Part shown: positions 14,306 through 52,763 of the stretch, piece after piece | How positions within the stretch are numbered: the first letter of the stretch is position 1 | How the letters are laid out: each line of letters starts with the position of its first letter | From: a bacterium | GTDB lineage: Bacteria > Patescibacteriota > Minisyncoccia > JAHIHE01 | Assembly: GCA_030693205.1 (NCBI GenBank) | Contig: JAUYBG010000010.1 | Location: forward strand, 2,059 to 66,058 | DNA length: 64,000 nt | Direction of reading: 5' to 3' | The notes under the pieces: generated by a model | The model's database searches: none | Told to the model about the DNA's origin: nothing | Seen by the model: the letters and a program-made list of their open reading frames with translations, nothing else | Position numbers and translations under genes: made by a program

Positions 14306-14977
14306 ATGTCTCCATTTGTTATTACTATTATCGGTCCTCCGGGTTCGGGCAAGGGCACGCAAGGAAAAGTCGTTGCTCAAAAATATAATTTAAATCACAT
14401 CGGTGTTGGAGATCTCGTAAGACAGTTGATCGTTCTTGATACGCCGCTAGGCAAAAAAGCAAAAGATAATTATGATAAAGGAGTTCCCCAGCCGGATGAA
14501 ATTATTATTCAGGCTGTTAAGGAAAAAATAGAAAAAATGTCCGCGAGTCAGCGGAAAAAAGGTTTTCTTTTTGATACCTTTTTGTCTTTTAATCAGGCGA
14601 AAGCGTTCGATGAAGTTTTAAAAAATTATGATTTGCCGGGAAGTTTAGCTATTTATTTGAATATTAGCGCCGATACTGTCATTGAAAGAACCGAGAAACG
14701 GCTCATTTGTTCAAAATGCGGCGCTGTTTTTTTGTCCAAAGATCCGGCTTATAATACTGGGAAGTGTGACAAGTGCGGCGGGGATCTGATGGTCCGAAGC
14801 GATGATAAGCCCGAAGTGGTGCGTCGAAGGATTGAAGAATATAAATCAAGAATGCTGGATCTGAAAAAATATTATCAGGACAGAAAAAGGCTGATCGTCA
14901 TTAATGGCGAGCCTGCAATTGAGGAAATTCACAAGGATATTATTAAAAAGATAAATGAATTTCACAAAACCAAATAA
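14306..14977 (+). CDS. adk: Adenylate kinase with a Zn-lid type LID domain
   Basis: GPPGSGKGTQ P-loop, CSKCG...CDKCGG lid and RRRIEEY. Confidence 0.9.
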   Translation: MSPFVITIIGPPGSGKGTQGKVVAQKYNLNHIGVGDLVRQLIVLDTPLGKKAKDNYDKGVPQPDEIIIQAVKEKIEKMSASQRKKGFLFDTFLSFNQAKAFDEVLKNYDLPGSLAIYLNISADTVIERTEKRLICSKCGAVFLSKDPAYNTGKCDKCGGDLMVRSDDKPEVVRRRIEEYKSRMLDLKKYYQDRKRLIVINGEPAIEEIHKDIIKKINEFHKTK

Positions 14978-15623
14978 TTTGATCATTTTAGGCCCTTCCG
15001 GCTCGGGCAAGGGAACTCAAGCTGAACTTTTAGCGCGGAAATTTGATCTGAAAATGGTGGATGGCGGAGAATATTTAAGAAGCATTCTGGCCTCAAAAAG
15101 CGGTGCTTTTAAAAAATTGGCGGAAAAAATGAACAAAGGCAATCTGGCTCCTACTGATATAATCAGAGATTGGATAAAGAAGCAGGTTTTCGGAAAACCT
15201 ATCAGCCGCGGATTGATCTTTAGCGGACAGCCCAGGATGATCGGCGAGGCAAAACTGACATTGAAATGGTTTCGGGAAAGCAAGCGGGGAGTGCCAGTAG
15301 TGATCTTTTTAAAAGTTTCAGCGCGAGAAGTGCTGAAGCGTCTGGCAAAAAGATATATTTGCGAAAAATGCAAAAAAGTATATACTTTAAATGAATTTCC
15401 CAAGAAGCCTTGCGGAGCTTGCGGAGGAAAAATTATCAAGCGCGCCGACGATACGCCGAAATTGATACGGAACAGATTGGCATATTTTCGCGAACAGGTG
15501 GCGAAAACTTTGGAATTTTTTAAGAAAAAAGGAATTTTGATCGAGATAAACGGCGAGCAAGGAGTAGCTTTAGTAAATCGGGAAATACTAAAGAAAATTA
15601 GCGATCATTTCCGTCGTAATTAA
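14955..15623 (+). CDS. Second adenylate-kinase-family paralogue with a Zn lid, overlapping adk by 23 nt
   Basis: GPSGSGKGTQ P-loop, CEKCKKVY...CGACGG lid, and RADDTPKLIRNRLAYF. Confidence 0.85.
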   Translation: MNFTKPNNLIILGPSGSGKGTQAELLARKFDLKMVDGGEYLRSILASKSGAFKKLAEKMNKGNLAPTDIIRDWIKKQVFGKPISRGLIFSGQPRMIGEAKLTLKWFRESKRGVPVVIFLKVSAREVLKRLAKRYICEKCKKVYTLNEFPKKPCGACGGKIIKRADDTPKLIRNRLAYFREQVAKTLEFFKKKGILIEINGEQGVALVNREILKKISDHFRRN

Positions 15624-17845: not shown

Positions 17846-18049
17846 ATGATTCCTTATCAGACAAAAATTAAAAAACTTCCCGGCACAAGTTATAACGAAC
17901 CAAGTGCAAGGGAAAATCCAAATAAAAGGAATGAGACCTTTTATCGTTTTGCCGGTTTAACCAAAGATAAGGAAATATTTTACGCGCAAGTCAAGGAAGA
18001 TAAAAAGAACGGCAGAAAATATTTTATGTCTTGTTTCTCGCCCGAATAA
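17846..18049 (+). CDS. Small hypothetical ORF (67 aa)
   Basis: ORF only. A promoter-like extended -10 lies upstream. Confidence 0.25.
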   Translation: MIPYQTKIKKLPGTSYNEPSARENPNKRNETFYRFAGLTKDKEIFYAQVKEDKKNGRKYFMSCFSPE

Positions 18050-18396: not shown

Positions 18397-18687
18397 ATGA
18401 GTTTTATAGAAATTAATATAAATAATTCTTTTAATAAAAAAGAAAATCACGAAGTGGGAAAAAGTAGTATTCCTAATAAGTTTCCGATTCTAAATCAAAA
18501 TTTTAACAAAGTGAATACTGAAACTAATTCTCTGAGTGCAGTTTCTGTTACAAACAGTGCTTCGAGCGAATTAGTTAATAATTGGTTGAAGGGTATAAAA
18601 CCATCTATTATGAGAGATGTGCTTGTTGGAGCTACCAGTGCCACAATAGGTGCGATTATTACTTATTTAATTTTAGGTATCAAATAA
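18397..18687 (+). CDS. Hypothetical tail-anchored membrane protein (96 aa), AT-rich
   Basis: C-terminal hydrophobic helix VLVGATSATIGAIITYLILGI. The region is about 28% GC. Confidence 0.45.
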   Translation: MSFIEININNSFNKKENHEVGKSSIPNKFPILNQNFNKVNTETNSLSAVSVTNSASSELVNNWLKGIKPSIMRDVLVGATSATIGAIITYLILGIK

Positions 18688-18695
18688 TTAAAAGT

Positions 18696-19388
18696 ATGAA
18701 AAAAGAAATTAAAAAAATTCAAACAGCTATTTTTTATAAAAATTTCCAACTGGGAAATACCTACGATAAATCAAAAATTCTTCTAGAATTGAGAGAAAAA
18801 GTTGGAAGTATATTTGACGGCGAACCAATAATGTTTCCTATACCATTTGGTACGCCACCAGAAATTCCGAGAATTATTTTAAATAGTAAAGATGGAATTT
18901 ATTCATGCCATGTAGCGTTAGATAGAACCTATGTTTTTTATAACGCAACCGAAAATTTAGAAAACATAGATAGAGTATTAAGTAAACAAAAGGATAATTC
19001 TTTAAAATTATTTGATTTTTTAAAATCTAAAAATTCTATTATAAATAGGGTTGGTTTTATAATAGAATTTGAAATTACGATAGATGATGAAAATGGATCT
19101 GAATATTTAAAGAAAGAATTTTTTTTAGATAGTAAATTTACAGATCCAAAAGAGTTAACATTTAGATATAATAAAGCGGATAAAACTAAAGGTGAGACAG
19201 GAATGAATAATTTAATTACAGTTTTAGGAAAAGCTGATAGAGTGGTAAAAGTACAGTTAGATATTAATAGTATTGCTGAAACAATGGATAACTCTGATTT
19301 TACAAAAGAAAATTTTACGGAAATTATTGATTATGCAATTATTAAAATCCCACCAATATTAGAAAAATTTCCAATTTTTGAATTATAA
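18696..19388 (+). CDS. Hypothetical protein (231 aa; start moved to MKKEIKK)
   Basis: The ORF-track start at 18582 overlaps the previous gene. An ATG at 18696 sits immediately after the upstream stop. Confidence 0.5.
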   Translation: MKKEIKKIQTAIFYKNFQLGNTYDKSKILLELREKVGSIFDGEPIMFPIPFGTPPEIPRIILNSKDGIYSCHVALDRTYVFYNATENLENIDRVLSKQKDNSLKLFDFLKSKNSIINRVGFIIEFEITIDDENGSEYLKKEFFLDSKFTDPKELTFRYNKADKTKGETGMNNLITVLGKADRVVKVQLDINSIAETMDNSDFTKENFTEIIDYAIIKIPPILEKFPIFEL

Positions 19389-19393
19389 ATTTT

Positions 19394-19921
19394 ATGTCTA
19401 GGAATAATAAAAATAAACTTAAGCAAATTAAATCGGTTGAGACTGCGCAGGAAAATTTAGGTTCTTCTGCCGAAACACCAAAATCAGAAATGACTACTGT
19501 ATTAGAATTAGCCTCATCGGTAAATAAACACGAAGAGAGAATTAAAAACTTGGAAAAGGATATAAATAATCCAGAATGGGTACAAAAATTAGTTCATTCA
19601 CAATTATCCCAATCTCATATTATAAAGTTTATATTAATTATTTTTTTGATAATTTTATTATTCTCAACTCTTCTTTTTTATATTTTAATAATTTTTAAAA
19701 TAAATAATTTGATTACCATTTTTGAGTATATTAAAAATGATAAAGTTTTAAATATTGATAGTAAATTAATGGATAGTTTTAATCAATTATTTTATGAAAC
19801 AAAGATAACGGTTAATTTTATTGCTTACATTTTAGGAGGTATTACGACTGTTGGTATTTTGGGAATATTATTAAAAAAATTATTAGAAAAATTTATTGAA
19901 AATCTATCTATTAAAAAGTAA
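19394..19921 (+). CDS. Hypothetical membrane protein (175 aa)
   Basis: Two hydrophobic segments. AT-rich. Confidence 0.5.
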   Translation: MSRNNKNKLKQIKSVETAQENLGSSAETPKSEMTTVLELASSVNKHEERIKNLEKDINNPEWVQKLVHSQLSQSHIIKFILIIFLIILLFSTLLFYILIIFKINNLITIFEYIKNDKVLNIDSKLMDSFNQLFYETKITVNFIAYILGGITTVGILGILLKKLLEKFIENLSIKK

Positions 19922-19942
19922 TAATTAAATAAAACAATTTTT

Positions 19943-20086
19943 ATGCAAACACAAAATCTAATCAAGCAAATTGAAAAAGCAAGAAATTCAAAGGTAATTA
20001 CTTATATCACTAGCGATAGGCAGGGTCCGATTCAAACGCCTCAAGAGCAAGTAATGTGGCGGGTGGTCGGGCAGGGGTGGAAATAA
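19943..20086 (+). pseudogene. Degenerate N+C-terminal remnant (47 codons) of the S49-like protease gene found at 25950..26975
   Basis: The first roughly 28 codons (MQTQNLIKQIEKARNSKVITYITSDRQG) and last roughly 19 codons (PIQTPQEQVMWRVVGQGWK) match the ends of the 341-aa ORF at 25950. By eye, nucleotide identity is about 92% and 82% respectively. Confidence 0.75.
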
Positions 20087-20109
20087 TTCGCGCATAAATA
20101 AATATCACC

Positions 20110-21153
20110 ATGAATCGCCAAAAATCAGAACTTTATTTTTTACTTATTCTCCTTGCGGGAATCTTTATCCTCGCCTTTTTTATTTTCAGTCCTTTTCTCT
20201 ATGCGTTGATCTTGGCAATTGTTTTTGCAATTGTTTTTGAATCACTGCATAAAAAATTACTTACTATGACGCGAGATAGAAAGAGCTTGTCGGCGTTTCT
20301 CGCTACTATCTCTGTTTTTACCGTTGTTGTTGCGCCTCTCGCGCTTTTAGGCATACAGATTTTTCAGGAAGCAACCGGGCTTTACTTTTCTCTCATTGAG
20401 AATGGCGGCGCAACCGATCTTTCTCGCATCGTGAATGACGCCATACAGAACCTTAAAAGATTTTCTCCTGTGCCGATAGAATTTTCCGTTGATGTTAATC
20501 AATATTTAAAGCAGGGATTAAGCTGGCTGCTCCAGCATCTTGGTCCGCTCTTTGCGAATATTGCTAAAGTAATGGTGGGCGTTTTTATATTTCTCATCGC
20601 TCTTTATTACTTGTTTAAAGATGGCTGCAAACTGAAAAGAGCTATCATCGCTTTAAGTCCTTTGCAAGACATTCACGATGAAGCGATTTTTAATAAACTT
20701 GCCTTGGTAATTAATTCCGTCGTCAAAGGGAGTCTCACGGTGGCGCTCGTTCAAGGCATACTGACCGCAGTCGGGTTTGCTATTTTCGGAGTTCCCAATG
20801 CGATTCTATGGGGCAGTGTTGCGGCAATAGCCGCGTTAATGCCCGGCATTGGAACATCGCTGGTGATCCTACCGGCTATTCTCTACTTATACTTTAGCGG
20901 AGAGACGCTTTTTGCGGCCGGTCTTTTTATTTGGGGAATGACAGCGGTGGGGCTTATTGATAATTTTTTAGGTCCTAAGCTGATTGGGCGCGGCACGCAT
21001 TCGCACCCCTTAATTATTTTCCTCTCGGTCATTGGCGGCATTGGATTTTTTGGACCCATTGGTCTCTTGCTGGGACCTCTCACTATAAGCCTGCTTTTTG
21101 CCCTTTTGGATATTTATTCCTCTTTGACAAGGAAAGAAAAATCTATAATGTGA
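20110..21153 (+). CDS. AI-2E family (UPF0118, PerM/YhhT-like) transporter
   Basis: 347 aa with 7-8 TM segments in the characteristic AI-2E arrangement (GSLTVALVQGILTAVGF...PLIIFLSVIGG). Confidence 0.75.
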   Translation: MNRQKSELYFLLILLAGIFILAFFIFSPFLYALILAIVFAIVFESLHKKLLTMTRDRKSLSAFLATISVFTVVVAPLALLGIQIFQEATGLYFSLIENGGATDLSRIVNDAIQNLKRFSPVPIEFSVDVNQYLKQGLSWLLQHLGPLFANIAKVMVGVFIFLIALYYLFKDGCKLKRAIIALSPLQDIHDEAIFNKLALVINSVVKGSLTVALVQGILTAVGFAIFGVPNAILWGSVAAIAALMPGIGTSLVILPAILYLYFSGETLFAAGLFIWGMTAVGLIDNFLGPKLIGRGTHSHPLIIFLSVIGGIGFFGPIGLLLGPLTISLLFALLDIYSSLTRKEKSIM

Positions 21154-21457
21154 ATCTACGATTAAAAAATATGCTTCCCGACAAACAAAGTAAAATTAAA
21201 AGAGTAATCTTTATCAGCATTATTATTTTGCTTCTTCTGTCACTTGTTTTGCCTTTAGCGGTTGGTTATTAAAAATAAGGATGAAAGCTGGAGAGGAAAA
21301 CCGCCGGCGTAATTTTTATTGATTTATTAAAGAAACATTGCTATAATTGGCAGCGAGAGAGAAATGGAAAAAGCTACTGCTTTTACATTTCGAACGAGCG
21401 AACCAATTATATTGTATTCAGTTATATAATTGCTCTATAATTATTTAATATTAACCT

Positions 21458-24193
21458 ATGAATATTTCAAAATACCTTATGCAGTTCTCCTTTGTCGGGA
21501 TTTTTGCCACCTTTATCCTTTTCTCAAGCATTATCGCCTTAGTTACTGATTGGTGGTGGTTTTCTGAAGTGAGCCATACGCAAATTTTTATTAAATCTCT
21601 AACCGCTAAAATAGCGCTGTTTTCGGCAGCGGGGATTTTTACCGCCATTTTTTTGCTTGCCAACTTCTCTTTGGCGCTTCGCTCGAAAATTTCTTGGACA
21701 GCAATGTTGCCGGAGTCGTTGATCGGCCAGCCGGTGAATGTGGATAATCGCATTGTTAAAAGATCAGCCGTTATTTTTAGTTTGGCAATCGCGTTCTTTT
21801 TCGGACTGGTAGCCGCGGCTAATTGGCAGGATGTTTTAAAATTTATTTCCGGCGCGGCTTTTGGCTCGTCAGACCCCATCTTTAATAAAGACATCGGATT
21901 TTATATTTTTTCTCTTCCGGTCTTTCAGACGGGGTTAGGCCTAATAAAATTTCTCGTTTTGTTATCGCTCGCCGGCTGCGCGATCATATATTTTTTGCGG
22001 GGCAGCCTTAATGTTGCAAATTTGCGATTACTTAAGCAATTGCAAATTGAACGCGGGGCTAGAATCCATCTTGGCATCTTGCTTGTAATTTTTCTCGGAA
22101 CCATTGCCGCCGGTGTCTATCTTTCCCGCTTCGAACTGCTCACAAGCCAAAGCGGCTTAGTTTTTGGCGCGATGTATACAGACACAACCGTGAGAATATT
22201 TATGCTTTGGATTTCAATAACTGCGGTGGCGCTTGCGGCAGTTTCGGCCGCCTTTTGGGCATGGAAAGGAAATTTGTCGCTGCTTGTCGGAGCAGTTTCT
22301 TTGTATGTTGTCGTAGGATTCGCCGGAGCGATAATTCCGTCTCTTGTTCAAAAACTGGCAGTTGCTCCCAATGAGCTCGTGAAAGAAACGCCGTTTATTA
22401 AGCATAATATCGCCGCTACCCGTCAGGGGTTTGCGCTTGATAAAATAGAGGAGCGGGAAATCTCGGGAGATAAACCCATCACCGCGGCTGATATCGCGAA
22501 CAATAATCTCACGGTCAAAAATGTGCGGCTTTGGGATAGAAAACCCCTTCTGTCAACTTTTTCCCAGATACAAGAAATCAGAACCTATTACGAGTTTGCC
22601 GAAGTTGATAATGATCGTTATATCATAGACGGAGAAATTCGCCAGATCATGCTTTCTCCGCGCGAGCTCGCTTCAGCCAGTCTGCCGAATAGAAATTGGA
22701 TTAACGAACGGCTCACCTTTACGCATGGATATGGCGTGGCGGCCGGACCGGTGAACCAAGTTACCCCAGAAGGCTTGCCGGTTTTGTTTGTTAAGGACTT
22801 GCCGCCCAAGTCGGATGTGAAAGAGCTTGAAATTACGCGTCCGGAAATCTACTTCGGCGAGCTTTCAAACGATTATGTCATTACCAAAACAAAATCCCGC
22901 GAGTTTGATTATCCCAAGGGCGAAGAAAATGTCTACGCGACATATGAGGGCAAGGGCGGGGTGGAGATAAACTCGTTTTTAAGGCGTGTCTTTTACGCAG
23001 TGAAATTCCAGTCGCTTAAACTGCTTTTGTCCAACGACATAACCAGCGAAAGCCGTATTTTGTATTACCGCACTATTGCCGAGAGGGTTGCCAAAATCGC
23101 CCCGTTTTTAGTATTTGATAGAGACCCCTATATTGTCATTGCCGACGGCAAGGTGTATTGGATCGTCGACGCCTATACCACGAGTGACCGTTATCCTTAC
23201 TCGGAACCTATACGGTTAAATGGCGGAAAGATAAACTATATCAGAAACTCGGTAAAGGCGGTGGTTGACGCGTATAATGGCAGTGTTGTTTTCTATCAGG
23301 CGGATGCAGAGGATCCGATTATAAAAACATATGCCAATATTTTCCCCGGAACATTCAAACCAATGTCAGAAATGCCGGAGAGCTTGGTTTCTCATTTGCG
23401 TTACCCCGAAGATATTTTTACTCTGCAGACTGCCGCGTATTCGGTCTATCACATGGATGATCCGCAGATTTTTTACAACAAGGAAGATCAGTGGGAGATT
23501 CCGGCCATTGCGGCAGAAGGAGAAGGGGCGTCACGCGCAGGTGGAATTCCGCCGATGCAACCGAGGCATATTATCATGAAGTTGCCCGGAGATAAAAAAG
23601 AAGAATATGTTTTGATGTTGCCTTTTACTCCACGGGCAAAAGACAATTTGTCTGCATGGATAGTCGCTAGGAACGACGGAGAAAGCTACGGTAAATTGTT
23701 AGTCTATCGTTTTCCTAAGGACAAGCTCGTGTTCGGACCCAAACAGATCATAGGCCGAATTAATCAAGACTCCGAGATTAGCCAGCAGATCTCGCTTTGG
23801 AGCCAAGGCGGGTCGCAAGTAATCCAAGGTCCGCTTTTGGTCATCCCGATTGAAGAATCGCTTTTGTATGTGCGCCCGCTCTATCTCAAGGCTGAAGCCG
23901 GAAAAATTCCGGAGTTAAAACGAGTGGTGGTGGCGTATGAAAATAAAATTGCCATGGAAGAAACGCTGGAAGAAGGATTAGTGAAAATCTTTGGCAGCGG
24001 AGCGGGAGTACGACCACAGGGAACCGCGACAGCAAAACCATCCGCTTCAAGCAGAATACCATCTCAAGATATTCAGGAGCGCATACAAAGAGCATTGGGA
24101 ACATATGAAGAGGCGCTTCGAGCGCAAAGGGATGGCGATTGGGCGCGCTATGGCGAAGCCATCAGACGATTGGGAGATATTCTTAAGCAATAA
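21458..24193 (+). CDS. UPF0182-family large membrane protein (911 aa)
   Basis: N-terminal multi-TM region with a TDWWWFSEV motif and a large C-terminal soluble region. Size and architecture are typical of UPF0182. Confidence 0.6.
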   Translation: MNISKYLMQFSFVGIFATFILFSSIIALVTDWWWFSEVSHTQIFIKSLTAKIALFSAAGIFTAIFLLANFSLALRSKISWTAMLPESLIGQPVNVDNRIVKRSAVIFSLAIAFFFGLVAAANWQDVLKFISGAAFGSSDPIFNKDIGFYIFSLPVFQTGLGLIKFLVLLSLAGCAIIYFLRGSLNVANLRLLKQLQIERGARIHLGILLVIFLGTIAAGVYLSRFELLTSQSGLVFGAMYTDTTVRIFMLWISITAVALAAVSAAFWAWKGNLSLLVGAVSLYVVVGFAGAIIPSLVQKLAVAPNELVKETPFIKHNIAATRQGFALDKIEEREISGDKPITAADIANNNLTVKNVRLWDRKPLLSTFSQIQEIRTYYEFAEVDNDRYIIDGEIRQIMLSPRELASASLPNRNWINERLTFTHGYGVAAGPVNQVTPEGLPVLFVKDLPPKSDVKELEITRPEIYFGELSNDYVITKTKSREFDYPKGEENVYATYEGKGGVEINSFLRRVFYAVKFQSLKLLLSNDITSESRILYYRTIAERVAKIAPFLVFDRDPYIVIADGKVYWIVDAYTTSDRYPYSEPIRLNGGKINYIRNSVKAVVDAYNGSVVFYQADAEDPIIKTYANIFPGTFKPMSEMPESLVSHLRYPEDIFTLQTAAYSVYHMDDPQIFYNKEDQWEIPAIAAEGEGASRAGGIPPMQPRHIIMKLPGDKKEEYVLMLPFTPRAKDNLSAWIVARNDGESYGKLLVYRFPKDKLVFGPKQIIGRINQDSEISQQISLWSQGGSQVIQGPLLVIPIEESLLYVRPLYLKAEAGKIPELKRVVVAYENKIAMEETLEEGLVKIFGSGAGVRPQGTATAKPSASSRIPSQDIQERIQRALGTYEEALRAQRDGDWARYGEAIRRLGDILKQ

Positions 24194-24255
24194 AAGATTA
24201 TTAAGCCAAAAATGATAAACTAAAGTTATAGGTAATCCAAAAAGAGGGAATTATT

Positions 24256-25722
24256 ATGATTATGCCAAACCTTAAGCAATTACTTAAAACGCTTAATCTA
24301 AAGCAACAAGCTTATGTAAATTTGAATTTGCCCGATTCTAAAAATGGAGAATATCTTCTTGCCGCTTTTCATTTAGTATCCGGGGGAAAGTTAAACATTC
24401 TGCAGGCGGCGGCGGAAATTGCCGCAGAATCTTCCACCGGCACAACTTTCAAAGTAAACACGGAAACTTCCTTTTCCAGAGAAATGAACGCGCTCGTTTA
24501 TCAGCTTGATCTAAAAAGAAACCTTGTTTGGGTTGCCTATCCCTGGAGACTTTTTGACAGAAGAGGAAATGTGCAGAATATCTTAACCTATATTGCTGGA
24601 AATATTCTTGGAATGAAAGAAGTGAGCGCTTTAAAATTATTAGATGTCTGGTTCCCTCCGGCAATGCTTGAACAGTATGATGGTCCAAGCTATACTCTTG
24701 ATGATATGCGAAAATATTTGAATGTCTATGGCAGGCCGATTTTAGGAACAATCATAAAACCCAAAATGGGATTAACCTCGGCGGAATACGCGGAAGCCGC
24801 TTATGATTTTTGGTCCGGTGGCGGAGATTTTGTCAAGAACGATGAGCCTCAGGCGGACCAGGACTTCTGTCCATACGATAAAATGGTAAAGCATGTAAAG
24901 GAAGCGATGGACAAAGCCGTCAAAGAAACCGGAAGGAAAAAAGTCCATTCGTTTAATGTTTCGGCGGCTGATTTTGACACAATGATCAAAAGGTGCGAGA
25001 TGATTAGAAATGCCGGTTTTGAACCGGGAAGTTACGCGTTTTTAATTGATGGCATTACGGCGGGATGGATGGCAGTACAGACATTAAGAAGAAGATATCC
25101 CGATGTATTCATTCATTTTCACCGGGCGGGACACGGCGGTTATACCAGACCGGAAAACCCAATAGGATTTACAGTATTGGTTTTATCTAAATTTGCAAGA
25201 TTGGCGGGAGCTTCAGGAATTCACACAGGAACAGCCGGCGTGGGAAAAATGAAAGGAAGTCCGGAAGAAGATGTTGTTGCCGCGCGCAATATTTTGCGTT
25301 TTAAAAGCAAAGGGCATTTCTTTGAACAAGAATGGGCGACAATACCCGAAACGGACAAAGATGCCATAAATCTTGTTCATAAAGATATTGCTCACAGGGT
25401 TATTTTAGAAGATGATAGCTGGAGAGGCATGAAGAAATGTTGCCCGATTATTTCCGGGGGTTTAGATCCGACATTGCTAAAGCCGTTTATTGATGTGATG
25501 GGAAATATAGATTTTATTACAACAATGGGCGCGGGATGCCACGCGCATCCAAAAGGAACCGCTGCCGGAGCAAAAGCATTAGTTCAAGCGTGCGAGGCCT
25601 ATAAAAAAGGGATTGATATTAAAAAATATGCCAAAAAACACAAGGAACTGGCAGAAGCTATAAGGTTTTTCTCAAAGGGGAGAGAAGAAATAAAACAAGC
25701 AAGGAATACGGAAAGGAGTTAG
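24256..25722 (+). CDS. rbcL: RuBisCO large-subunit-like protein, form II/III type
   Basis: IIKPKMGLT (catalytic Lys region), GGGDFVKNDE, IHFHRAGHG and GTAGVGKMKG motifs. Confidence 0.88.
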   Translation: MIMPNLKQLLKTLNLKQQAYVNLNLPDSKNGEYLLAAFHLVSGGKLNILQAAAEIAAESSTGTTFKVNTETSFSREMNALVYQLDLKRNLVWVAYPWRLFDRRGNVQNILTYIAGNILGMKEVSALKLLDVWFPPAMLEQYDGPSYTLDDMRKYLNVYGRPILGTIIKPKMGLTSAEYAEAAYDFWSGGGDFVKNDEPQADQDFCPYDKMVKHVKEAMDKAVKETGRKKVHSFNVSAADFDTMIKRCEMIRNAGFEPGSYAFLIDGITAGWMAVQTLRRRYPDVFIHFHRAGHGGYTRPENPIGFTVLVLSKFARLAGASGIHTGTAGVGKMKGSPEEDVVAARNILRFKSKGHFFEQEWATIPETDKDAINLVHKDIAHRVILEDDSWRGMKKCCPIISGGLDPTLLKPFIDVMGNIDFITTMGAGCHAHPKGTAAGAKALVQACEAYKKGIDIKKYAKKHKELAEAIRFFSKGREEIKQARNTERS

Positions 25723-25949
25723 TTTGGCAGTTATCCTTCTTCGGCCGATTATATCAAAAGTACCCTCCTAATTTTATAAAAAAATCGTGAAATGCCATCA
25801 GATTTGGCATGGATTATTTACAAATCCAAATACTGCATTATTTAGATTACATTCGTTAGAAGTTTTACCACCTACACTTCTGAGAACAGAAGAAATATTA
25901 AAAAAATAGAACAAAAAAAAATTTTAAAATTAATTCAAAAACAATTCTT

Positions 25950-26975
25950 ATGCAAACACAAAACCTAATCAAGCAAATTGAGAAATCAAGAAATTCAAAA
26001 GTAATTACTTATATCACTAGTGACAGGCAGGGGCCGGTGAATGCCCGGATTGCCATGGATATAATTCCGATTGTCAGCGCGCAATTACGGAAGATCGGAC
26101 GAGTGCCGAAGATAGATCTATTTTTATACAGCTCCGGCGGAGATACGATGGTGCCGTGGCGATTGGTTTCAATGATCCGCGAATATTGCGATACTTTTAG
26201 CGTTTTAATTCCTTATAAATCCCATAGCGCCGCGACAATGATCTCGCTCGGAGCGGATGAAATTGTAATGACGGATCTGGCGGAGCTCTCACCGATTGAT
26301 CCTTCGACAGCCAATGTTTTTAATCCTACTGATCCGGCGAACCCGCAAAGCAAAATTCCCATTTCCGTGGAAGACGTGATGGCATATTTTGACCTCGCGA
26401 AAAGCAAGTTTGGCATCAAAAGCGATGCGGAACTGGCAAAAATATTCAATAAATTCGTGGAAGCCAATCCGCAAATTCATCCTCTCGCGCTTGGCAATGT
26501 CAACCGCATTCATAACTTGATCCGGATGCTGGCCAAAAGTTTATTGAAAAGCCACAAGAAAAGAATGACCGATAATGAGATTGCCACGATCGTGGATTAT
26601 TTCACGGAGAAACTTTATTCCCATCAATATTTTATCGGCCGGCGCGAAGCGAAAGATGACTTGGGTTTGAAAAATGTCGTTAATGCCGACAGCGATCTCG
26701 CGAAATTGATGTCGGAACTTTACGAAGAATACAAAAAAGAAATGGGTTTGGGCGCGAACTGGAACGCCGAAGCGGAGCTGGGCGATGGCAGGGCGATAAA
26801 TACTAAAACCTATAAACTGGCTTGCATTGAAAATACCGATGAATCGAATTATTTTGAGCTTATTTTGGAATACCGGAAAGGCCAGGTAAATATTGTCCAG
26901 CAAACTCCGCAAGGCCCGATCCAAGTGCCGCAAGAGCAGGTGATGTGGCGAGTAGTAGGGCAAGGGTGGAAATAA
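25950..26975 (+). CDS. S49 / SDH-family (ClpP-fold) serine-peptidase-like protein
   Basis: LYSSGGDTMVPWRLVSMIREY...SHSAATMISLGADEIVMTDLAELSPIDP matches the SppA/SDH Ser-protease core. Confidence 0.65.
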   Translation: MQTQNLIKQIEKSRNSKVITYITSDRQGPVNARIAMDIIPIVSAQLRKIGRVPKIDLFLYSSGGDTMVPWRLVSMIREYCDTFSVLIPYKSHSAATMISLGADEIVMTDLAELSPIDPSTANVFNPTDPANPQSKIPISVEDVMAYFDLAKSKFGIKSDAELAKIFNKFVEANPQIHPLALGNVNRIHNLIRMLAKSLLKSHKKRMTDNEIATIVDYFTEKLYSHQYFIGRREAKDDLGLKNVVNADSDLAKLMSELYEEYKKEMGLGANWNAEAELGDGRAINTKTYKLACIENTDESNYFELILEYRKGQVNIVQQTPQGPIQVPQEQVMWRVVGQGWK

Positions 26976-27426: not shown

Positions 27427-28308
27427 ATGAATAAAGATTGTTACGTGATTTTTGCAAAAACTAATCATAATTTTATGCCTAAAAAAATTTTTATCACCAA
27501 TATTCAGGGCGAGAAAGAATTGTTTTCGCTCGGGAAAGTTTTCAGGAGCGCCAAAAGAGTGGGCGCTTCGGATCAGGAAGCGAAAAAAATTTCTACTGCT
27601 ATCGAGCAAGGGGCGTATTCCGGAATGAAAACCACGGAGATTTTTACGAAAGTGAGAGAAATGCTCGAGAAAAAAGACTTGAAGGCAGTTATGCGGTTTA
27701 ATCTCCGGGAAGCGATGAGAAAACTCGGTCCGACCGGGTATTCGTTTGAAAAATACGCGGGAGAGGTTTTCAAAAGCATGGGCTACAAGGTTAGTCTGAA
27801 TTTATTTATTCCGGGAAAATGCGTGACCTACGAAATTGATTTTTTGGCGGAAAAAGACGATTTTATTTATATCGGCGAATGCAAATACCACAAATTGCCG
27901 GAAGGAAAAGTGGATCTGCAGATAGCTCTTGCCAATTGCGCGCGGTTTCATGATATATTGGCGGCGGGAAAATTCGAAGGCAAAAAAGTAAAATCTATCT
28001 TGGTCACGAATACGAAACTTACCACTGAAGCGATAAAATTTTCCGAATGCAAGGGCATAGATCTTTTGGGCTGGCGGTATCCGGCGGAGCAGGGCCTCGA
28101 GTACTTGATCGAAAGCAGGAATCTCTATCCACTGACCATTTTACCGTCATTTTCCGGAAGATTGTCGGAATCTCTCTCTGCCCAAAAAACAATGCTGGTA
28201 AAAAATATATTGGAAATGAAGGATGCCGATTTTCCAGAGAAAAAAGAATTTTACGCCGAGGGATTCGATGCTTTGGTAAAAGAGGCGGAGATTCTTTTAA
28301 AAAAGTAA
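27427..28308 (+). CDS. ATP-cone domain fused to an Mrr-like PD-(D/E)xK restriction-endonuclease domain
   Basis: The N-terminus has an NrdR-type ATP-cone pattern (KIFITNIQGEKELFSLGKVFRSAKRVG...AKKISTAIEQ). The C-terminus has GYSFEKYAGEVFKSMGY...EIDFLAEKDDFIYIGECKYH (D-x-E-C-K). Confidence 0.65.
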   Translation: MNKDCYVIFAKTNHNFMPKKIFITNIQGEKELFSLGKVFRSAKRVGASDQEAKKISTAIEQGAYSGMKTTEIFTKVREMLEKKDLKAVMRFNLREAMRKLGPTGYSFEKYAGEVFKSMGYKVSLNLFIPGKCVTYEIDFLAEKDDFIYIGECKYHKLPEGKVDLQIALANCARFHDILAAGKFEGKKVKSILVTNTKLTTEAIKFSECKGIDLLGWRYPAEQGLEYLIESRNLYPLTILPSFSGRLSESLSAQKTMLVKNILEMKDADFPEKKEFYAEGFDALVKEAEILLKK

Positions 28309-35544: not shown

Positions 35545-36349
35545 AATAGGCATTTAGAGAGAAAAACCATCATTAAACTAATTATTAGGGACAGAGACGG
35601 AAACTTTTATTTTATAAATTATTTTATGGAATATTTAACGACAACCTACCAGGAAAGGAAGCGCAAAAGTTAAACGTCATTATTTTAGTTTTATTAATTG
35701 CCCGCTTCCAAGAGAAAGACGGGTTTTTTAGTTAAAAAAAATAAATTTGTGTGAAAATTGCAGTACATTAAAAATAATGTATCGCAATTTCTACACAACA
35801 GTTTGGGTAGAAAGTTCGCTTACAATTTATATTTATTATAGTCTTAAATCGTCAAGAGGATATTTATTTGCTCTGATCTGCCAATTTGGCGGAACAATGC
35901 GGGTAAGATATTCTAAAGTAAACAACCCCGAACCAATCTGCCAGCGAGCAGATGCTACGGGGTAAAAATCTTCAAAACTAGTAATCGCTGATTGCTAGTT
36001 AAAGTAAAAATGAAAAACTCATACTAAGAGTATATGGTGGATGCCTTGACATAAAAAGTCGATGAAGGACGTGGTGTAACTACGAAAAGCCTCGGTGAGC
36101 CGTTAACAGGCCGTGACCCGGGGGTATCCGAATGGGGAAACCCTTCTGAGTAAACCTCAGAAATTATTATCTGAATTAAGTAGGGTAATAAAGAGAACCT
36201 AGGGAAGTGAAACATCTCAGTACCTAGAGGAAAAGAAAAAAATGTTAATATTGATAACGGTGGCAGACATTATTTATTTAATGCCTACATCGGTATCGGT
36301 ATTATTTATTCCCTGAGTAGTGGCGAGCGAAATGGGAAAAGCCTAAACC

Positions 36350-36592
36350 TCTCGATGCGTGACATCGGAATTTTCAAGCACCAATTTTCAAGCACCAAAC
36401 AAAATTTAAATAACCAAAATTCAAAACTCCAAACAAATTGGAATTTAGAAAATTGGGATTTGGAATTTGATTGGGATTTGGAATTTGGGATTTGGAGCTT
36501 CCGCTGTTGCGCAGCGGGTGGTGTTGCAAGGTGGGTGCGTTATCGGAGTAATCCGGTACAGAGCTAACTAAATGTAATTTGATTAGTCAAAT
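36350..36592 (+). repeat. Roughly 220-nt expansion segment with tandem repeats inside the 23S 5' domain
   Basis: It lies between the conserved GAGCCTAAACC and TTCCTGGAAAGGACG. It contains ttttcaagcacca repeated twice and gggatttggaattt-like units repeated three times. Confidence 0.7.
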
Positions 36593-36762
36593 GTTCCTGG
36601 AAAGGACGACCAAAGAGGGTGATAGTCCCGTAGATGAAAATCATTACATGCTCTGAGTATCTATTCTTAAGTACCATAGGGCCAGAGAAACCCTATGGGA
36701 ATCCGGCAGTACTACTAACTTTGTCGCAAGACAAACTGCCAAGGCTAAATACTTTTTATGAT

Positions 36763-36799
<37 letters not shown>

Positions 36800-38252
36800 T
36801 AGCCCGTTTAGGGCAGTGAAATAGAAACTGAAATCATATACTTACAACGAGTGGGAGCCTTGCTTCGGCAGGGTGACCGCGTGCTTTTTGCAGAACGAAC
36901 CAACGAGTTTGCTAGGTATTGCAAGTCTAAGCTCTTCGGAGCGGAGGCGTAGTGAAAGCGAGGGTTAAATACCCGTTTAGCAATACTTACAAGACCCGAA
37001 ACCAGGTGAGCTAGCCATGAGCAGGATGAACCTCAACGAAAGTTGAGGGGAGGTCCGAACCCATTAGCCGTGCAATACTATGGGATGACTTGTGGTTAGG
37101 GATGAAATTTCAATCGAACTTGGTAATAGCTGGTTCTCTCCGAAATAGCTATAGGGCTAGCGTCCTTTGTTCCACTTTGGGGGTAGAGCACTGAATGGAC
37201 ACGGCTGGACTTTTGTCTACCTTGTCCAAACAAACTCCGAATACCAAAGTGCCAGAGAAGGGCAGTCAGAACGTGAGGGCTAAGCTTCACGCTCAAAAGG
37301 GGAACAGCCCAGATCGTCGTCTAAGGTCCCTAAATCTATGCTAAGTGATTTTAAGGAAGTGAGGTTTCTTAAACAGCTAGGAAGTTGGCTTAGAAGCAGC
37401 CATCTTTTAAAGAGTGCGTAACAGCTCACTAGTCTACTGAAATCTTGCGCCGAAAATGTCCGGGGCTAAGCATAGTACCGAAGACACGGGTTGTCATGTC
37501 CTCCGGGATGTGGCAGCGGTAGGAGAGCGTTCCATACGCAGTGAAGTCTGAGCGCGAGTAAAGATGGAGTGTATGGAAGTGAGAATGTTGGTATGAGTAA
37601 CATGAATTATGGTGAGAAACCATAACACCGAAAGCTTAAGGTTTCCTGGGCAACGAAAATCAACCCAGGGTTAGTCGGTCCTAAGGCGAGGTCGAAAGAC
37701 GTAGTCGATGGATAGCTGGTTAATATTCCAGCACTACTATATGTCATGATATGGAAGGACGCAATGTGGGAGGTTGGGCACATTATTGGATTTGTGTCAA
37801 TATCTTGTAGGCTGATTCGCGAGGCAAATCCCGTGGATCTTTGAAAGCAATTTCATAAAAGCCGAGAGATGTTGGAACTTCTGCCTAAGGGCGGGAGAAC
37901 CTAACTGGGGTCATGTTGCCAAGAAAATTTTCTAATTTATCATATAGTAACCGTACCGCAATCCGACACAGGTGAGCAGGCATCAGCGTGCCAAGGTGTA
38001 CGGGAGAACTCTTGTTAAGGAATTCGGCAAAACAACGGCCGTAACTTCGGGATAAGGCCTGCCTATCGCAAGATAGGCTGCAATAAAAGAAATCAGGGCG
38101 ACTGTTTAACAAAAACACAGGTCTATGCTAACCCGCAAGGGGATGTATATGGGCCGACGCTTGTCCAGTGTCAGAACGTTAAGGTTGGAAGTGAAAGCTT
38201 TCGGCTGAAGCGCTGATGAACGACAGCGGTAACTATAACCGTTCTAAGGTAG

Positions 38253-38630
38253 TGGATTTACTTAAGGAAGTGAATTCACTAGGATTGGAACGGCTATAGG
38301 GAGAACAGTCAAGGAAAAAAAGTAGCTGCCCATTTCTGTAAAAAGAAATGTCCATTTGGCCATATGCTGGAAACTCTGGTGAATCTGATGTTACTATGGT
38401 ATAATACGCACATAGACAATATGAGAAAATATTATGCCGAGTAAAAATACATTCAGTGCAGACAATCAGCAGGAAAGGCCAGAAATATTATAATATTTCT
38501 GGAATCCTCAGAGATCAAACGCCAAAACCATTGATAGAAAGATGGTAAGATATGACCCTATCTCTATGGCGACATAGAGGGATATCAACAAATATCCATT
38601 TCGTTTAATGACGGAATAAAAACAAATGAG
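38253..38630 (+). other. Roughly 378-nt insertion in 23S rRNA at the conserved GGUAG|CGAAAUUCC site. It is a candidate ORF-less group I intron or an intervening sequence.
   Basis: The conserved flanks are contiguous in typical 23S rRNAs. The insert is AT-rich with no long ORF. Confidence 0.6.
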
Positions 38631-39191
38631 CGAAATTCCTTGTCACTTAATTAGTGACGTGCATGAATAGCGGAACGACCCTGGTACTGTCTCAACAAGT
38701 GACCCGGTGAAATCGCATTAACAGTGAAGATGCTGTTTACCTGCAGCTAGACGAAAAGACCCTATGAAGCTTTACTATAACTTGGTATTGAGCCAAATTT
38801 TGAAATGCTTAGAATAGGTGGGAGACTTCGATCCTTAATCTCCGGATTAAGGGGAGTCGCAATATGAAATACCACTCTTTTTACAATTTTGTTCTAACCT
38901 CATACCGTAATCCGGTATAGGAACAGTGCCTGGCGGGTAGTTTGACTGGGGCGGTTGCCTCCTAAAAAGTAACGGAGGCGTTTAAAGGTCGGCTAGGCGC
39001 GGATGGAAATCGCGCTGATAGCGCAAAAGCATAAGCCGGCTTTACTGTGAGACTGACGGGTCGAACAGTTGCGAAAGCAGAATTTAGTGATCCGATGTGT
39101 CCATGTAGGTGGCACAAAGCTCAACGGATAAAAGCTACTCTAGGGATAACAGGCTAGTCCAGTCCAAGCGTCCATAGCGACGACTGGGTTC

Positions 39192-39227
<36 letters not shown>

Positions 39228-39775
39228 AAGAAGCTCCCAAGGGTTTGGCTGTTCGCCAACTAAAGCGGTACGTGAGCTGGGTTCAAACCGTCGTGAGACA
39301 GGTTGGACTCCTATCTACTGCAGGCGTAGATACTTGCGAGAACTCTTTTCTAGTACGAGAGGACCGAAAAGAACGAACCTCTGGTGCACCAATTGTCATG
39401 CCAATGGCATAGTTGGGTAGCTAAGTTCGGACGAGATAAACGCTGAAAGCATATAAGCGTGAAACTCATCTCAAGATTAGGTATCATAGATTCCAGAGAG
39501 ATGATCTGGTAAAATTCTGTCGCAAGACAGAACTGATAGGGTGCAGGTGTAAGTGTAGCAATACATTCAGCCGAGCACTACTAATGAATCATTGGAGTTT
39601 TTCATAACTTACTTTAACCGGCAATTAGCGGGTGTTATGAGAAGATAATGTTTATGATTGATTTGAATACTATATAAATATAAATTTAAGGGAATACGAA
39701 TTTTAGGTATTTACCCCGTTAAATAAAATTTTAATAAATTTTGGATTGTTTTTTTTACAATTCATTTAATAGGGG

Positions 39776-40303: not shown

Positions 40304-40421
40304 TGCCCCGGTGCTATAATGGCGGTAATGTACCACCTCTTCCCATTCCGAACAGAGTCGTGAAAGTTACCAGCGCCGATGGTAGTTGGTTTACCAGCGA
40401 GAGTAGGCCAGTGCCGGGGCA
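40304..40421 (+). rRNA. rrf: 5S rRNA
   Basis: TGCCCCGGTG...CCATTCCGAAC...GCGCCGATGGTAG...GAGAGTAGG...CCGGGGCA. Confidence 0.9.
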
Positions 40422-50865: not shown

Positions 50866-51309
50866 ATGATTATCATTCACATCCTAATATCAATAGTATT
50901 CTACTTTATTTTAATGTATCTAAGCATAAATCTGTTAGGGCTGCTCGCGAGAGGATTCTTTACCAATCCAGAAATCGATAAATTAAAAACTGAAACTAAA
51001 CATGATTTTATTAAAGAGGAAATTAAAAAATCTGAACGTGCCGATAAATTGCTTAATGTAATCGCGTTTTTGGCAATTATTGGTTATCTTTATGCCACAT
51101 TTCATTTTTGGAATATAGGAGTTACTGCTGTTGCATTAGTATTGATGTTAGTAAGACTCCCTGCTTTGCTTTGGGAAATAAAAACAGGGCAACATCTTAA
51201 TCGTGTTGCTTCAGCTTTATCGATGCCCAAAAACGCTTTATATTACATCACCACTTTTTTAACTTTCGCAGCCCTACCAGCTTTATATTATTCCTTGTAT
51301 CGTTTTTAA
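50866..51309 (+). CDS. Hypothetical membrane protein (147 aa, 4 TM), AT-rich
   Basis: Hydrophobic helices. Low GC. Confidence 0.5.
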   Translation: MIIIHILISIVFYFILMYLSINLLGLLARGFFTNPEIDKLKTETKHDFIKEEIKKSERADKLLNVIAFLAIIGYLYATFHFWNIGVTAVALVLMLVRLPALLWEIKTGQHLNRVASALSMPKNALYYITTFLTFAALPALYYSLYRF

Positions 51310-51315
51310 AATAAA

Positions 51316-51909
51316 ATGATAATTTATTACAATAGTAAAGAAGAAAAATTACTTAAACAGCTCGAAAAAATGCACAGCAGTTCACAAAAAATTAACCTTA
51401 ACAATTCTATTGGTGAACTTAAATGTATTTTACTAGATAAGCCACATTATTTAACGAGTGTTCAAGTGAACAGGGACGGACTGCTCGGTTCATTAAGAAG
51501 GATTGAATGCGCTTATCGTTGGTGTGAAAAAGCGCCGTTAAATTACGAAGGATCTGACAAAAGAGAAGCGTTAACATTAGTTTTTTTTCATAATTCAAAA
51601 TGTTTCATAGAAATTTTAAAAAAGTGTTTTATAAAATTTAGTTCAAATAAAAAAAATAAAAAAGTATTTCATGAAATTACAACAATAAGAGATCTTTTTG
51701 CTCATTCATACGAAAAAGATTTTTTTGGAAAGAAAACTTTTATAAGAATTAATATTAATCATCAGTTTAACAAAGGTCTTTTTGAGTTAGAAGTTTTTAA
51801 TTTTGATACTTCAAAAAAAATATATGGGATATTTTTTTCTCTTTCAGTTTTTTTATCAGAGATAGAGGAATTAGTTAAAGAATTAATTAATCATATAAAG
51901 AAAAATTAG
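51316..51909 (+). CDS. Hypothetical protein (197 aa), AT-rich
   Basis: ORF only. Confidence 0.45.
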   Translation: MIIYYNSKEEKLLKQLEKMHSSSQKINLNNSIGELKCILLDKPHYLTSVQVNRDGLLGSLRRIECAYRWCEKAPLNYEGSDKREALTLVFFHNSKCFIEILKKCFIKFSSNKKNKKVFHEITTIRDLFAHSYEKDFFGKKTFIRININHQFNKGLFELEVFNFDTSKKIYGIFFSLSVFLSEIEELVKELINHIKKN

Positions 51910-51929
51910 ATGAGTTAATAAAGTCTATT

Positions 51930-52763
51930 ATGAACATAAAAACCCAAACCGCAAAAATCGCGATTTTTCAAAAAAAAGAAATTCGTAAAGTTATTTATAA
52001 AAACGAATGGTGGTTTGTAATTACTGATATTATTGTAGCGTTGACTGATTCTATTCAGCCGGAAGGATATATAAAAGATATGCGCCGCCGAGACGAAGAA
52101 CTTTCCAAAGGGTGGGGGCAAATTGCCACCCCCCTTAAGATACTTACAAAAGGCGGTTTGCAAAATATGAATTGCGCCAATACTGAAGGTATTTTCCGCA
52201 TAATTCAATCAATTCCTTCCCCTAAAGCCGAGCCATTCAAGCGTTGGCTGGCCAGAGTCGGTTATGAACGGGTAAAAGAAATCGAAGATCCGGAACTGGC
52301 CACCAAAAGAACCCGCGCGCTTTATAAAGCCAAAGGATATTCCAATGCATGGATCGAGAAAAGAATGCGCGGCATCGAAGTCCGCGAAACTTTGACCGAT
52401 GAATGGAACAAGCGGGGCGTAAAAGAAGGGCAGGAATACGCGATTTTAACCGCTGAAATTTCCCAAGCGGCTTTTGGAATGACGCCAAGCGAATACCAGA
52501 AATTCAAAGGCTTAAAAAGAGAGAATTTGCGGGATCATATGGATGATTTGGAATTGATATTTACCATGCTTGGCGAAGCTTCAACCACTGAAATCGCCAA
52601 GAATAAAAACGCTCAAGGTTTTGTCGAAAATAAAGTTGCCGCCATAAAAGGTGGAAGCGTGGCTGGCAAAGCGCGAAAAGATTTGGAGAAAAAAAGCGGC
52701 AAAAAAGTTTCAACTAAAGAAAATTATTTATTAAAAGCGGAAGATAAAAAAAGATTAAAATAA
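51930..52763 (+). CDS. Bro-N domain protein (phage antirepressor-like) with a KilA-C/DinD-like C-terminal region
   Basis: Matches Bro-N: NEWWFVITDIIVAL... resembles the PWFVAKDVAEAL-type segment, and KAEPFKRWLARV resembles EAKAFKRWV... Confidence 0.65.
   Translation: MNIKTQTAKIAIFQKKEIRKVIYKNEWWFVITDIIVALTDSIQPEGYIKDMRRRDEELSKGWGQIATPLKILTKGGLQNMNCANTEGIFRIIQSIPSPKAEPFKRWLARVGYERVKEIEDPELATKRTRALYKAKGYSNAWIEKRMRGIEVRETLTDEWNKRGVKEGQEYAILTAEISQAAFGMTPSEYQKFKGLKRENLRDHMDDLELIFTMLGEASTTEIAKNKNAQGFVENKVAAIKGGSVAGKARKDLEKKSGKKVSTKENYLLKAEDKKRLK

Follow-up and report, generated by a model that had tools for sequence, protein, structure and literature searches.

In a 64,000-nt stretch of DNA from a member of the Patescibacteriota (assembly GCA_030693205.1, contig JAUYBG010000010.1, positions 2,059 to 66,058 of the forward strand; hereafter the window), the gene for a predicted ClpP-fold protease, which we call P, is represented twice. 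The intact copy of 341 codons is located at positions 25950..26975 of the plus strand, and a short open reading frame (ORF) of 47 codons, located 5.9 kb upstream on the same strand, consists of the first and the last codons of P fused in frame. Between the two copies are genes encoding an AI-2E family transporter, a UPF0182 membrane protein and the large subunit of RuBisCO. Our analysis indicates that this arrangement was probably generated by recombination anchored in P, which would have left two P copies of different ancestry flanking the three genes, followed by collapse of the left copy through a deletion between short repeats. Directly observed are the two-part homology of the short ORF to P, the repeat at its junction, the synteny of the flanks, the substitution pattern between the two copies and the separate origins of the RuBisCO and UPF0182 genes.

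The short ORF consists of the two ends of the protease gene

The original prediction, made from the DNA letters alone, described the short ORF (19943..20086, plus strand) as the beginning of the protease gene fused in frame to its end, with identities of about 92% and 82% estimated by eye and with homology extending a few nucleotides upstream of the ATG. A repeat search of the window reproduced both identities and gave exact coordinates. Positions 19931-20029 correspond to positions 25938-26036 (99 nt, 92% identity), starting 12 nt before the ATG, and positions 20020-20086 correspond to positions 26909-26975 (67 nt, 82% identity), ending with the stop codon. The head part (19931..20029, plus strand) therefore comprises a matched 12-nt leader and codons 1-29 of P, while the tail part (20020..20086, plus strand) comprises codons 321-341 and the stop codon; the strand and the order of both parts are the same as in the intact gene. 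A BLASTN comparison of the intact gene with the rest of the window, which had been proposed as a check together with the prediction, detected the head with E = 5e-28 and the tail with E = 9e-14. The right limit of the homology is the stop codon. To the left, the homology is solid to position -12, and farther upstream the sequence is AT-rich and the similarity doubtful. The intact 47-codon frame encodes the peptide MQTQNLIKQIEKARNSKVITYITSDRQGPIQTPQEQVMWRVVGQGWK.

The head and tail parts share 10 nt at positions 20020..20029 of the plus strand, GCAGGGTCCG, which encode Gln-Gly-Pro and constitute the deletion junction. In the intact gene, two near-identical 10-mers conforming to GCARGGNCCG are present on the plus strand: GCAGGGGCCG at 26027..26036 (codons 27-29) and GCAAGGCCCG at 26909..26918 (codons 321-323). 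They encode Gln-Gly-Pro in the identical frame and mark the left and the right deletion endpoint, respectively. This direct repeat is imperfect (8 of 10 positions), and a single copy of it is left at the junction of the remnant. Since both 10-mers are in one frame, the in-frame fusion of head and tail is automatic. Each Gln-Gly-Pro motif also holds a GGNCC site: the intact gene has exactly two of them, at nt 82 and 964, and the remnant has the single one at its junction. The remnant lacks codons 30-320, i.e. most of the matched protease domain. An exact look-up of the 47-aa ORF as a called gene in public assemblies returned none, and among 1.84 billion representative proteins its sole full-length match was the ORF itself. 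The ORF is probably a pseudogene, and it is a recombination scar, real but fairly ordinary.

The predicted product of P matches PF01972 (SDH-type ClpP-like serine protease) with 51.6 bits, compared to the cut-off of 31.3, over residues 3-124 only, and reaches 62 bits against NCBIfam NF047768, for which the cut-off is 250. By this family match P is a predicted SDH-type ClpP-fold protease, and the label S49-like, which it had been given initially, is acceptable. Thousands of relatives of 340-345 aa, sharing 70-93% identity, occur in Patescibacteria, and P is conserved over its entire length. A protease encoded on a Logan contig of 1.7 kb (P0002) is 94% identical to that of the window. A scan of viral contigs found no P, hence there is no sign that the gene belongs to a phage. 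In an AlphaFold2 model of P, whose predicted local distance difference test score averages 70.5 and is about 90 at both ends, the loop that follows strand 1 contains the first Gln-Gly-Pro motif, and the turn of the C-terminal beta hairpin is formed by the second one. The local confidence is high for the head, modelled as a helix and a strand, and also for the tail, which forms the final strand.

Each copy retains one ancestral flank

We compared the window with about 170 loci of relatives that contain P, which are labelled here with L-numbers. The gene order in these loci is a ribosomal-protein operon, SecY, Adk, Adk, Map, variable small genes, P, and genes for Mrr-like, NmrA, DUF192 and RuvX proteins. 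In L179, P follows Map after ~100 nt, which represents an empty site, and in L002-L008, L176 and L177 between 1 and ~12 small variable genes are located between Map and P, with about a dozen in L176. The P proteins of L004 and L005 are the same, and the genes upstream of P differ between these two loci. The window has the corresponding upstream block with S10/spc ribosomal proteins, SecY, two Adk genes and Map, and it is bacterial and similar to members of the Candidate Phyla Radiation (CPR).

The remnant is located 21 nt past a gene encoding a 175-aa protein (p175), and this is the junction that precedes the intact P in L005. The two genes upstream of P in L005 are homologous to those of the window, with protein identities of 76% and 69%. 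On the other side, the sequence that follows the intact P of the window matches the one that follows P in L002, and the intact copy keeps the same downstream flank as L002 and L009, including the gene for a protein with an Mrr-like nuclease domain (27427..28308, plus strand), which is conserved at this position in relatives. Since each copy keeps one ancestral flank, the region 20087-25937 is extra DNA. Genes for AI-2E, UPF0182 or RuBisCO are absent from the vicinity of P in all of the about 170 related loci. Synteny in relatives had been suggested as a further check, and its outcome agrees with the view of a rearranged segment.

p175 is the last gene of an AT-rich module of three genes (18397..19921, plus strand; products of 96, 229/230 and 175 aa), with a GC content of 22-29% and a GC content at third codon positions (GC3) of 0.13-0.21, for which no match was found in Pfam, NCBIfam or PADLOC. 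Homologues of the 229/230-aa gene adjoin P in many Patescibacteria, usually downstream, which suggests a possible functional or recombinational link between this gene and the protease. Searches of Pfam and NCBIfam found no recombinase domain either in the ORFs tested between 17019 and 29262 or in 20 further ORFs of the window; the ORFs of the former region had matches to AI-2E, UPF0182, RuBisCO, protease, Mrr-like and NmrA families, or none. Rfam identified no RNA element between 17 and 28 kb of the window. PADLOC reported no defence-system match for P or the neighbouring cassette genes and only weak ones for Mrr-like and HEPN-like proteins.

A second head-plus-tail mini-gene belongs to the same island as the remnant. 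The 67-aa ORF at 17846-18049 derives, by an in-frame internal deletion, from a 136-aa gene found in L009 and L010; L177, which has a gene of that size in the corresponding place, may have the parent gene too. An imperfect repeat, CAAGTTAT / CAAGAAAT, bounds the deletion, which removed 207 nt (69 codons).

The two copies diverged as working genes

Of the 17 coding differences between the remnant and the intact copy, 14 fall on third codon positions, and no more than 2 residues change as a result. When random mutation was simulated 100,000 times, not a single run gave two or fewer amino-acid changes, and 74.5% of the runs gave a premature stop codon. The small number of amino-acid changes relative to coding differences indicates that the divergence took place while both genes were working, most simply if they belonged to different lineages. 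A simple duplication within the genome is unsupported by this pattern. Of the duplication followed by internal deletion that had been proposed originally, the deletion at a short direct repeat is retained, but the simple in-genome duplication is not, as the copies diverged as working genes.

The head of the remnant is identical to the intact P of the window at 72/78 positions, compared to 69/78 for L002 and 68/78 for L009. For the tail, the corresponding values are 48/58 for the intact P of the window and 51/58 and 47/58 for the orthologues L009 and L002, respectively. The remnant is approximately as far from the intact P of the window as are orthologues of other lineages. We also considered assigning a donor lineage to the remnant from the nucleotide identities of head and tail, and made no assignment, since the segments are too short.

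In place of residue 326 of P the remnant encodes Thr, which is present in 0/147 orthologues (these have V, I, L or M); this hints weakly that constraint has been relaxed after the deletion. A reading of the remnant as a silent cassette for antigenic variation was rejected because the remnant encodes nearly the same residues as the intact P.

The inserted segment is a mosaic with an archaeal-like RuBisCO gene

The AI-2E family transporter gene (20110..21153, plus strand) begins 23 nt past the stop codon of the remnant. It is followed on the same strand by the UPF0182 membrane protein gene (21458..24193) and the RuBisCO large-subunit gene (24256..25722), and in the spacer between the latter and the leader of the intact P (25723..25937) no feature was recognised.

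Among the nearest RuBisCO proteins (82-91% identity), DPANN and other archaea account for the overwhelming majority, and two of the proteins carry the source label Form II/III. Compared to the genes on DPANN-type contigs (L089-L092), the RuBisCO gene of the window is 90-91% identical at the protein level and 82-86% identical at the nucleotide level. The contigs carrying these closest relatives encode archaeal S28e, L7Ae and an archaeal-type D-Tyr-tRNA deacylase, and both AI-2E and UPF0182 are absent from them. The nucleotide identity to archaea ends near the ends of the coding sequence, so that the archaeal homology is confined to RuBisCO itself. These comparisons argue that the RuBisCO gene was very probably acquired laterally and that it probably came from archaea. 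The UPF0182 protein is 86-88% identical to other patescibacterial proteins, which are encoded at unrelated loci, and none of the closest UPF0182 genes on patescibacterial contigs has AI-2E or RuBisCO beside it.

Because archaeal homology is limited to RuBisCO and the UPF0182 gene is ordinary for Patescibacteria, the inserted segment is, on these sequence comparisons, a mosaic and not one acquired unit. The transfer of the three genes as a single cassette was rejected, given that the closest RuBisCO contigs and the closest UPF0182 contigs each lack the other two genes. The original prediction had regarded the whole RuBisCO-containing segment as a probably laterally acquired unit. Lateral acquisition is very probable for RuBisCO, whereas the patescibacterial affinity of UPF0182 speaks against a single unit.

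Lateral transfer of RuBisCO between archaea and the CPR is established (Jaffe et al. 2018, PMC6389311). The gene of the window resembles such archaea-to-CPR transfers in that a patescibacterial RuBisCO is found among DPANN sequences and appears to have moved alone. It differs from them in its closeness to archaeal genes at both the protein and the nucleotide level and in that its insertion site is defined. In six samples, Nielsen & Lui 2026 (bioRxiv 10.64898/2026.05.13.725050) found a sole RuBisCO cluster with members of both domains of life, at 80-84% identity. Since the RuBisCO of the window is closer to its archaeal relatives than the members of this cluster are to each other, its transfer was comparatively recent.

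Remnants of P flank cassettes in other lineages

Fragments of P were also found in relatives. Head remnants are located upstream of the intact P in L010/L094 (-5 to +82), L009 (to +78), L176 (two remnants) and L177 (to ~+71), while tail remnants are located downstream of the intact P and start at about nt 966 in L018/L123, 965 in L025/L154, 958 in L053, 940 in L080 and 990 in L117. The junctions in L010, L176 (second remnant) and L009 descend from one founding event, which joined a head of P to the end of a putative methyltransferase gene; all that sets them apart is a small indel and a secondary deletion with CGGC at its bounds, which links the junction of L010 to that of L176. In these three loci the head remnants are followed by the last 25-49 codons of another gene (L009 7351-7450, L010 5273-5422, L176 7055-7150). 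The tail of that gene (…IEELLSGKKPDLPQGLVKNYYKEAK…) is also present 1.4-2.2 kb downstream of P in L015 (2534-2680) and L021 (11351-11491), and the fragment containing IEELLSGKKPDLPQGLVKNYYKEAK looks like the C-terminus of a putative DNA methyltransferase.

Cassette families are shared between the two sides of P. The genes for a TIGR04255 protein and its two partners are upstream of P in L009 and downstream of it in L080, L152, L156 and L143. Genes for 203-aa, 95-aa and PIN proteins are found upstream in L009, L010, L176, L177 and L093, and downstream in L118, L030, L036, L020 and L168. Homologues of both the 229/230-aa and the 175-aa genes are upstream of P in the window and in L005, and the 229/230-aa homologue alone is upstream also in L165; the latter gene is directly downstream of P in 14 loci, of which only L045 also has the 175-aa homologue. 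The first genes of the three cassette families showed no homology to each other in pairwise BLASTP comparisons, and of their products only the 245-aa protein belongs to TIGR04255. The cargo of relatives includes PIN, weakly HEPN-like, TIGR04255, NYN and DUF3800 proteins, and the inserts at P range from 142 nt to ~5.9 kb and contain unrelated cellular genes.

The loci L176 and L177 encode the same P protein and their aligned flanks are ~99-100% identical at the nucleotide level, but they differ by an indel of ~3 kb (L176 5288-8378 vs L177 6565-6663). The block of ~3 kb in L176 contains a 203/81/182-aa cassette, the second head remnant and 229/113-aa genes. The identity between the two loci is ~100% up to the first base of the head remnant and 86-92% just after it, indicating that P-derived repeats are real crossover points.

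Some tail remnants have gained a start codon and are callable as ORFs of 27-29 aa, with the products MVQQTPQGPIQVPQEKVAFRIVKQGWK and MTQPTTQGPIQIPQERVMWRVVGQGWKNN (L080 12573-12659; P0367).

Proposed history of the locus and alternative explanations

To account for these observations, we propose the following history, which we regard as the probable one. P would be a conserved anchor beside a variable stretch downstream of the ribosomal-protein/SecY/Adk/Map block, and related lineages would exchange DNA using P as the homologous anchor. One event would have placed the AI-2E, UPF0182 and RuBisCO genes between two P copies of different ancestry, either by a single crossover with a circular fragment or through homologous recombination on one side and an illegitimate join on the other. 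The left copy would have retained the old upstream neighbourhood and the right copy the old downstream neighbourhood, and the left copy would then have lost codons 30-320 by deletion between the in-frame 10-nt repeats. We infer from this scheme that two complete P copies existed at least briefly, and the order of the events is deduced in the same way. Deletions at microhomologies are found elsewhere at the locus, namely the one bounded by CGGC (L010/L176) and the 69-codon in-frame deletion of the window (17846-18049). Efficient homologous recombination between the residual repeats is improbable, given their shortness and divergence (99 nt at 92%, 67 nt at 82%, longest exact run 20 nt), and this would leave the three genes stably fixed at present.

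Several observations weigh against this history. The GC3 values of the three inserted genes (0.43, 0.49 and 0.38) are typical for the window, and the GC3 outliers are the genes just upstream of the remnant. The remnant has neither a stop codon nor a frameshift. No two full tandem copies of P were found in 169 loci, i.e. the proposed intermediate was unobserved. Furthermore, the breakpoints of independent remnants cluster at both Gln-Gly-Pro motifs even with unrelated partner sequences, and a one-off microhomology deletion offers no explanation for clustered breakpoints in other lineages.

The last point would be explained if the CARGGNCC Gln-Gly-Pro sites were genuine hot spots of recombination or breakage that take up cassettes bringing a replacement head or tail, an explanation that we consider unlikely. 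Such sites could be acted upon by a recombinase provided in trans, or could be subject to repair of site-specific breaks, such as those made by a GGNCC-specific restriction enzyme, and the head-plus-tail ORF would result when site 1 and site 2 of a single gene recombine. GGNCC at nt 82 and 964, as in the P of the window, is present in nearly all of 159 orthologues. If the remnant of the window is set aside, 3/5 independent tail remnants start within nt 958-969 (p ~0.01), and the head remnants of both lineages end within nt 71-93 (+82 and ~+71; p ~0.04); the combined p value for heads and tails is ~4e-4, calculated from few independent events and against a conservative null in which short remnants are presupposed. 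The clustering is real in the sample examined. In L025 the homology begins exactly at G|GNCC, and GGNCC occurs in the window at 0.48 of expectation, compared to 1.12 for CCNGG. The presence of the same cassette families on either side of P, of the Mrr-like nuclease gene in its flank and of the putative methyltransferase fragment after the head remnants of L009, L010 and L176 would also fit.

However, no recombinase was found near these loci, and an extended shared recombination site around the Gln-Gly-Pro motifs was rejected: only 8-9 nt are common to the two sites, with no extended inverted-repeat architecture and no local drop of conservation. The remnants of L080 (nt 940), L117 (nt 990) and L053 (whole site included) do not break at the cut position, and the short head-containing ORFs among the 1.84 billion proteins end anywhere between residue 26 and ~50. 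Within the three inserted genes there are 10 GGNCC sites, and many other palindromes are as depleted in the window as GGNCC. For other motifs of the window, CCGG and GATC reach 1.81 and 1.64 of expectation, whereas TCGA, TGCA, CTAG, ACGT and CATG are depleted; these biases may be traces of restriction-modification pressure. A broader generalisation, which we put forward tentatively and regard as open to considerable doubt, is that P functions in Patescibacteria as a recombinase-free docking site for cassettes. Cassettes bounded by heads or tails of P would stack at this site, spread by homologous recombination and join preferentially at the two GGNCC sites, possibly owing to site-specific breakage, and in the window they would have captured an archaeal RuBisCO gene.

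An alternative to the history proposed above is a scheme with old tandem paralogues, in which both copies were functional for a long time within one lineage and one was recently deleted, with no foreign protease copy involved. This scheme would account for the substitution pattern, which fits two functional copies, for the 12-nt leader common to both copies and for the head of the remnant being slightly closer to its own intact head than to that of any orthologue (72/78 vs at most 69/78). It does not account for the tail, which is no closer to the intact tail than to those of orthologues; moreover, tandem full copies were found in none of the 169 loci, and cassettes are exchanged at this locus at the strain level with crossovers at the heads of P. 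We consider this scheme improbable. Even less probable is that the 47-aa ORF encodes a functional small protein kept by selection, e.g. a helix-strand-turn-strand fragment that modulates the protease. Its frame is intact, with only 2 amino-acid changes among the 17 nucleotide changes, a promoter-like match is present just upstream (19896-19925), and the parts of P from which it derives are modelled as confidently predicted secondary structure elements. The repeats, however, force an in-frame fusion, and divergence before the deletion predicts the same substitution pattern equally well. A search of the about 170 loci and of the 1.84 billion representative proteins found no other head-plus-tail ORF. 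The orthologues never have Thr at position 326, and the remnants in relatives have no start codon or continue into unrelated sequence.

The window is derived from a metagenome-assembled genome (locus tag Q8N37; proteins MDP3057272-75; contig of 195,904 bp), and this could raise the concern that the remnant or the arrangement with two copies is a chimeric artefact of the assembly. We regard the probability of such an artefact as minimal. The Logan assembly of SRR13727537 (contig 3605, 30.5 kb), which possibly contains the window's own reads, does not differ from the window at any position of the 16.3 kb retrieved, a region that covers both protease copies and every junction. The longest exact run shared by the remnant and the intact copy is only 20 nt, which makes a repeat-induced chimera unlikely, and comparable remnants are present in several unrelated assemblies.

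Comparison with known systems

Displacement of Rhs C-termini, orphan CdiA-CT/CdiI modules and the effector-immunity arrays of the Vibrio cholerae type VI secretion system (T6SS) have been attributed to homology-facilitated illegitimate recombination (Kirchberger et al. 2017, PMC5361080). The P locus resembles these arrays in having a conserved anchor gene, variable neighbouring cargo, retained pieces of the anchor and no integrase, as well as in stacking (two head remnants in L176) and in strain-to-strain movement by homologous recombination (L176 vs L177). Anchor fragments are retained beside cargo in the window and in L009, L010, L176, L177, L018, L025, L053, L080 and L117. Unlike in the known arrays, the anchor is the gene for a predicted ClpP-fold protease and not the constant region of a polymorphic toxin, the cargo in the window consists of membrane and metabolic genes and not of toxin-immunity pairs, remnants derive from both ends of the gene, the remnant of the window is a head-plus-tail fusion, and the mechanism is deduced from the products of recombination.

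Another relevant case is that of the prophages e14 and 21, which integrate in the 3' end of the E. coli icd gene, supply a replacement end and leave the displaced end as a remnant. In common with this type of integration, short diverged repeats of the end of the target gene flank the insert at P, and the target itself stays intact because a substitute end comes with the incoming DNA. In contrast to it, no integrase or phage genes were found in the ORFs scanned at the locus, and both ends of P are used. The deletion in the remnant corresponds to those known to occur at short direct repeats by replication slippage or RecA-independent illegitimate recombination, as it involved a 10-nt repeat (8/10) with one copy at the junction, and we found no feature that distinguishes it from them.

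On its own, the remnant is an ordinary recombination scar, and the transfer of RuBisCO into the CPR is already known. The value added by the locus lies in an insertion site defined to a few bases, in the closeness of the RuBisCO gene to archaea and in the repeated use of both ends of P. From the scar, the place at which a patescibacterial genome gained genes can be read almost to the base, and the manner in outline; one of these genes is a RuBisCO unusually close to DPANN archaeal genes (86% nucleotide identity). Gene acquisition in these bacteria with small genomes, for which neither an integrase nor a transposase was found at the locus, is poorly understood, and in several lineages the locus illustrates a conserved gene as a recombination anchor. 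Should breakpoints prove to cluster at the two GGNCC sites, a specific mechanism by which members of the CPR capture genes would be indicated, and it could be tested.

Other features of the window

Some features distant from the insertion were also noted. At 14306-15623 the window has two slightly overlapping ORFs of 223 and 222 aa, in the place where L003, L004, L176 and L179 have tandem adenylate kinase genes. The match to 23S rRNA at 36012-39605 is 3,594 nt long, compared to 2,925 nt of the model, which implies ~670 nt of insertions. The bacterial 23S rRNA gene is followed by a 5S rRNA gene (40307-40419), with no 16S rRNA gene adjacent. A second patch of low GC content is located at 50866-52763 (27.6% over 51-52 kb); it comprises two ORFs without a family match and a gene for a protein with a Bro-N domain, and may represent another small acquired island.

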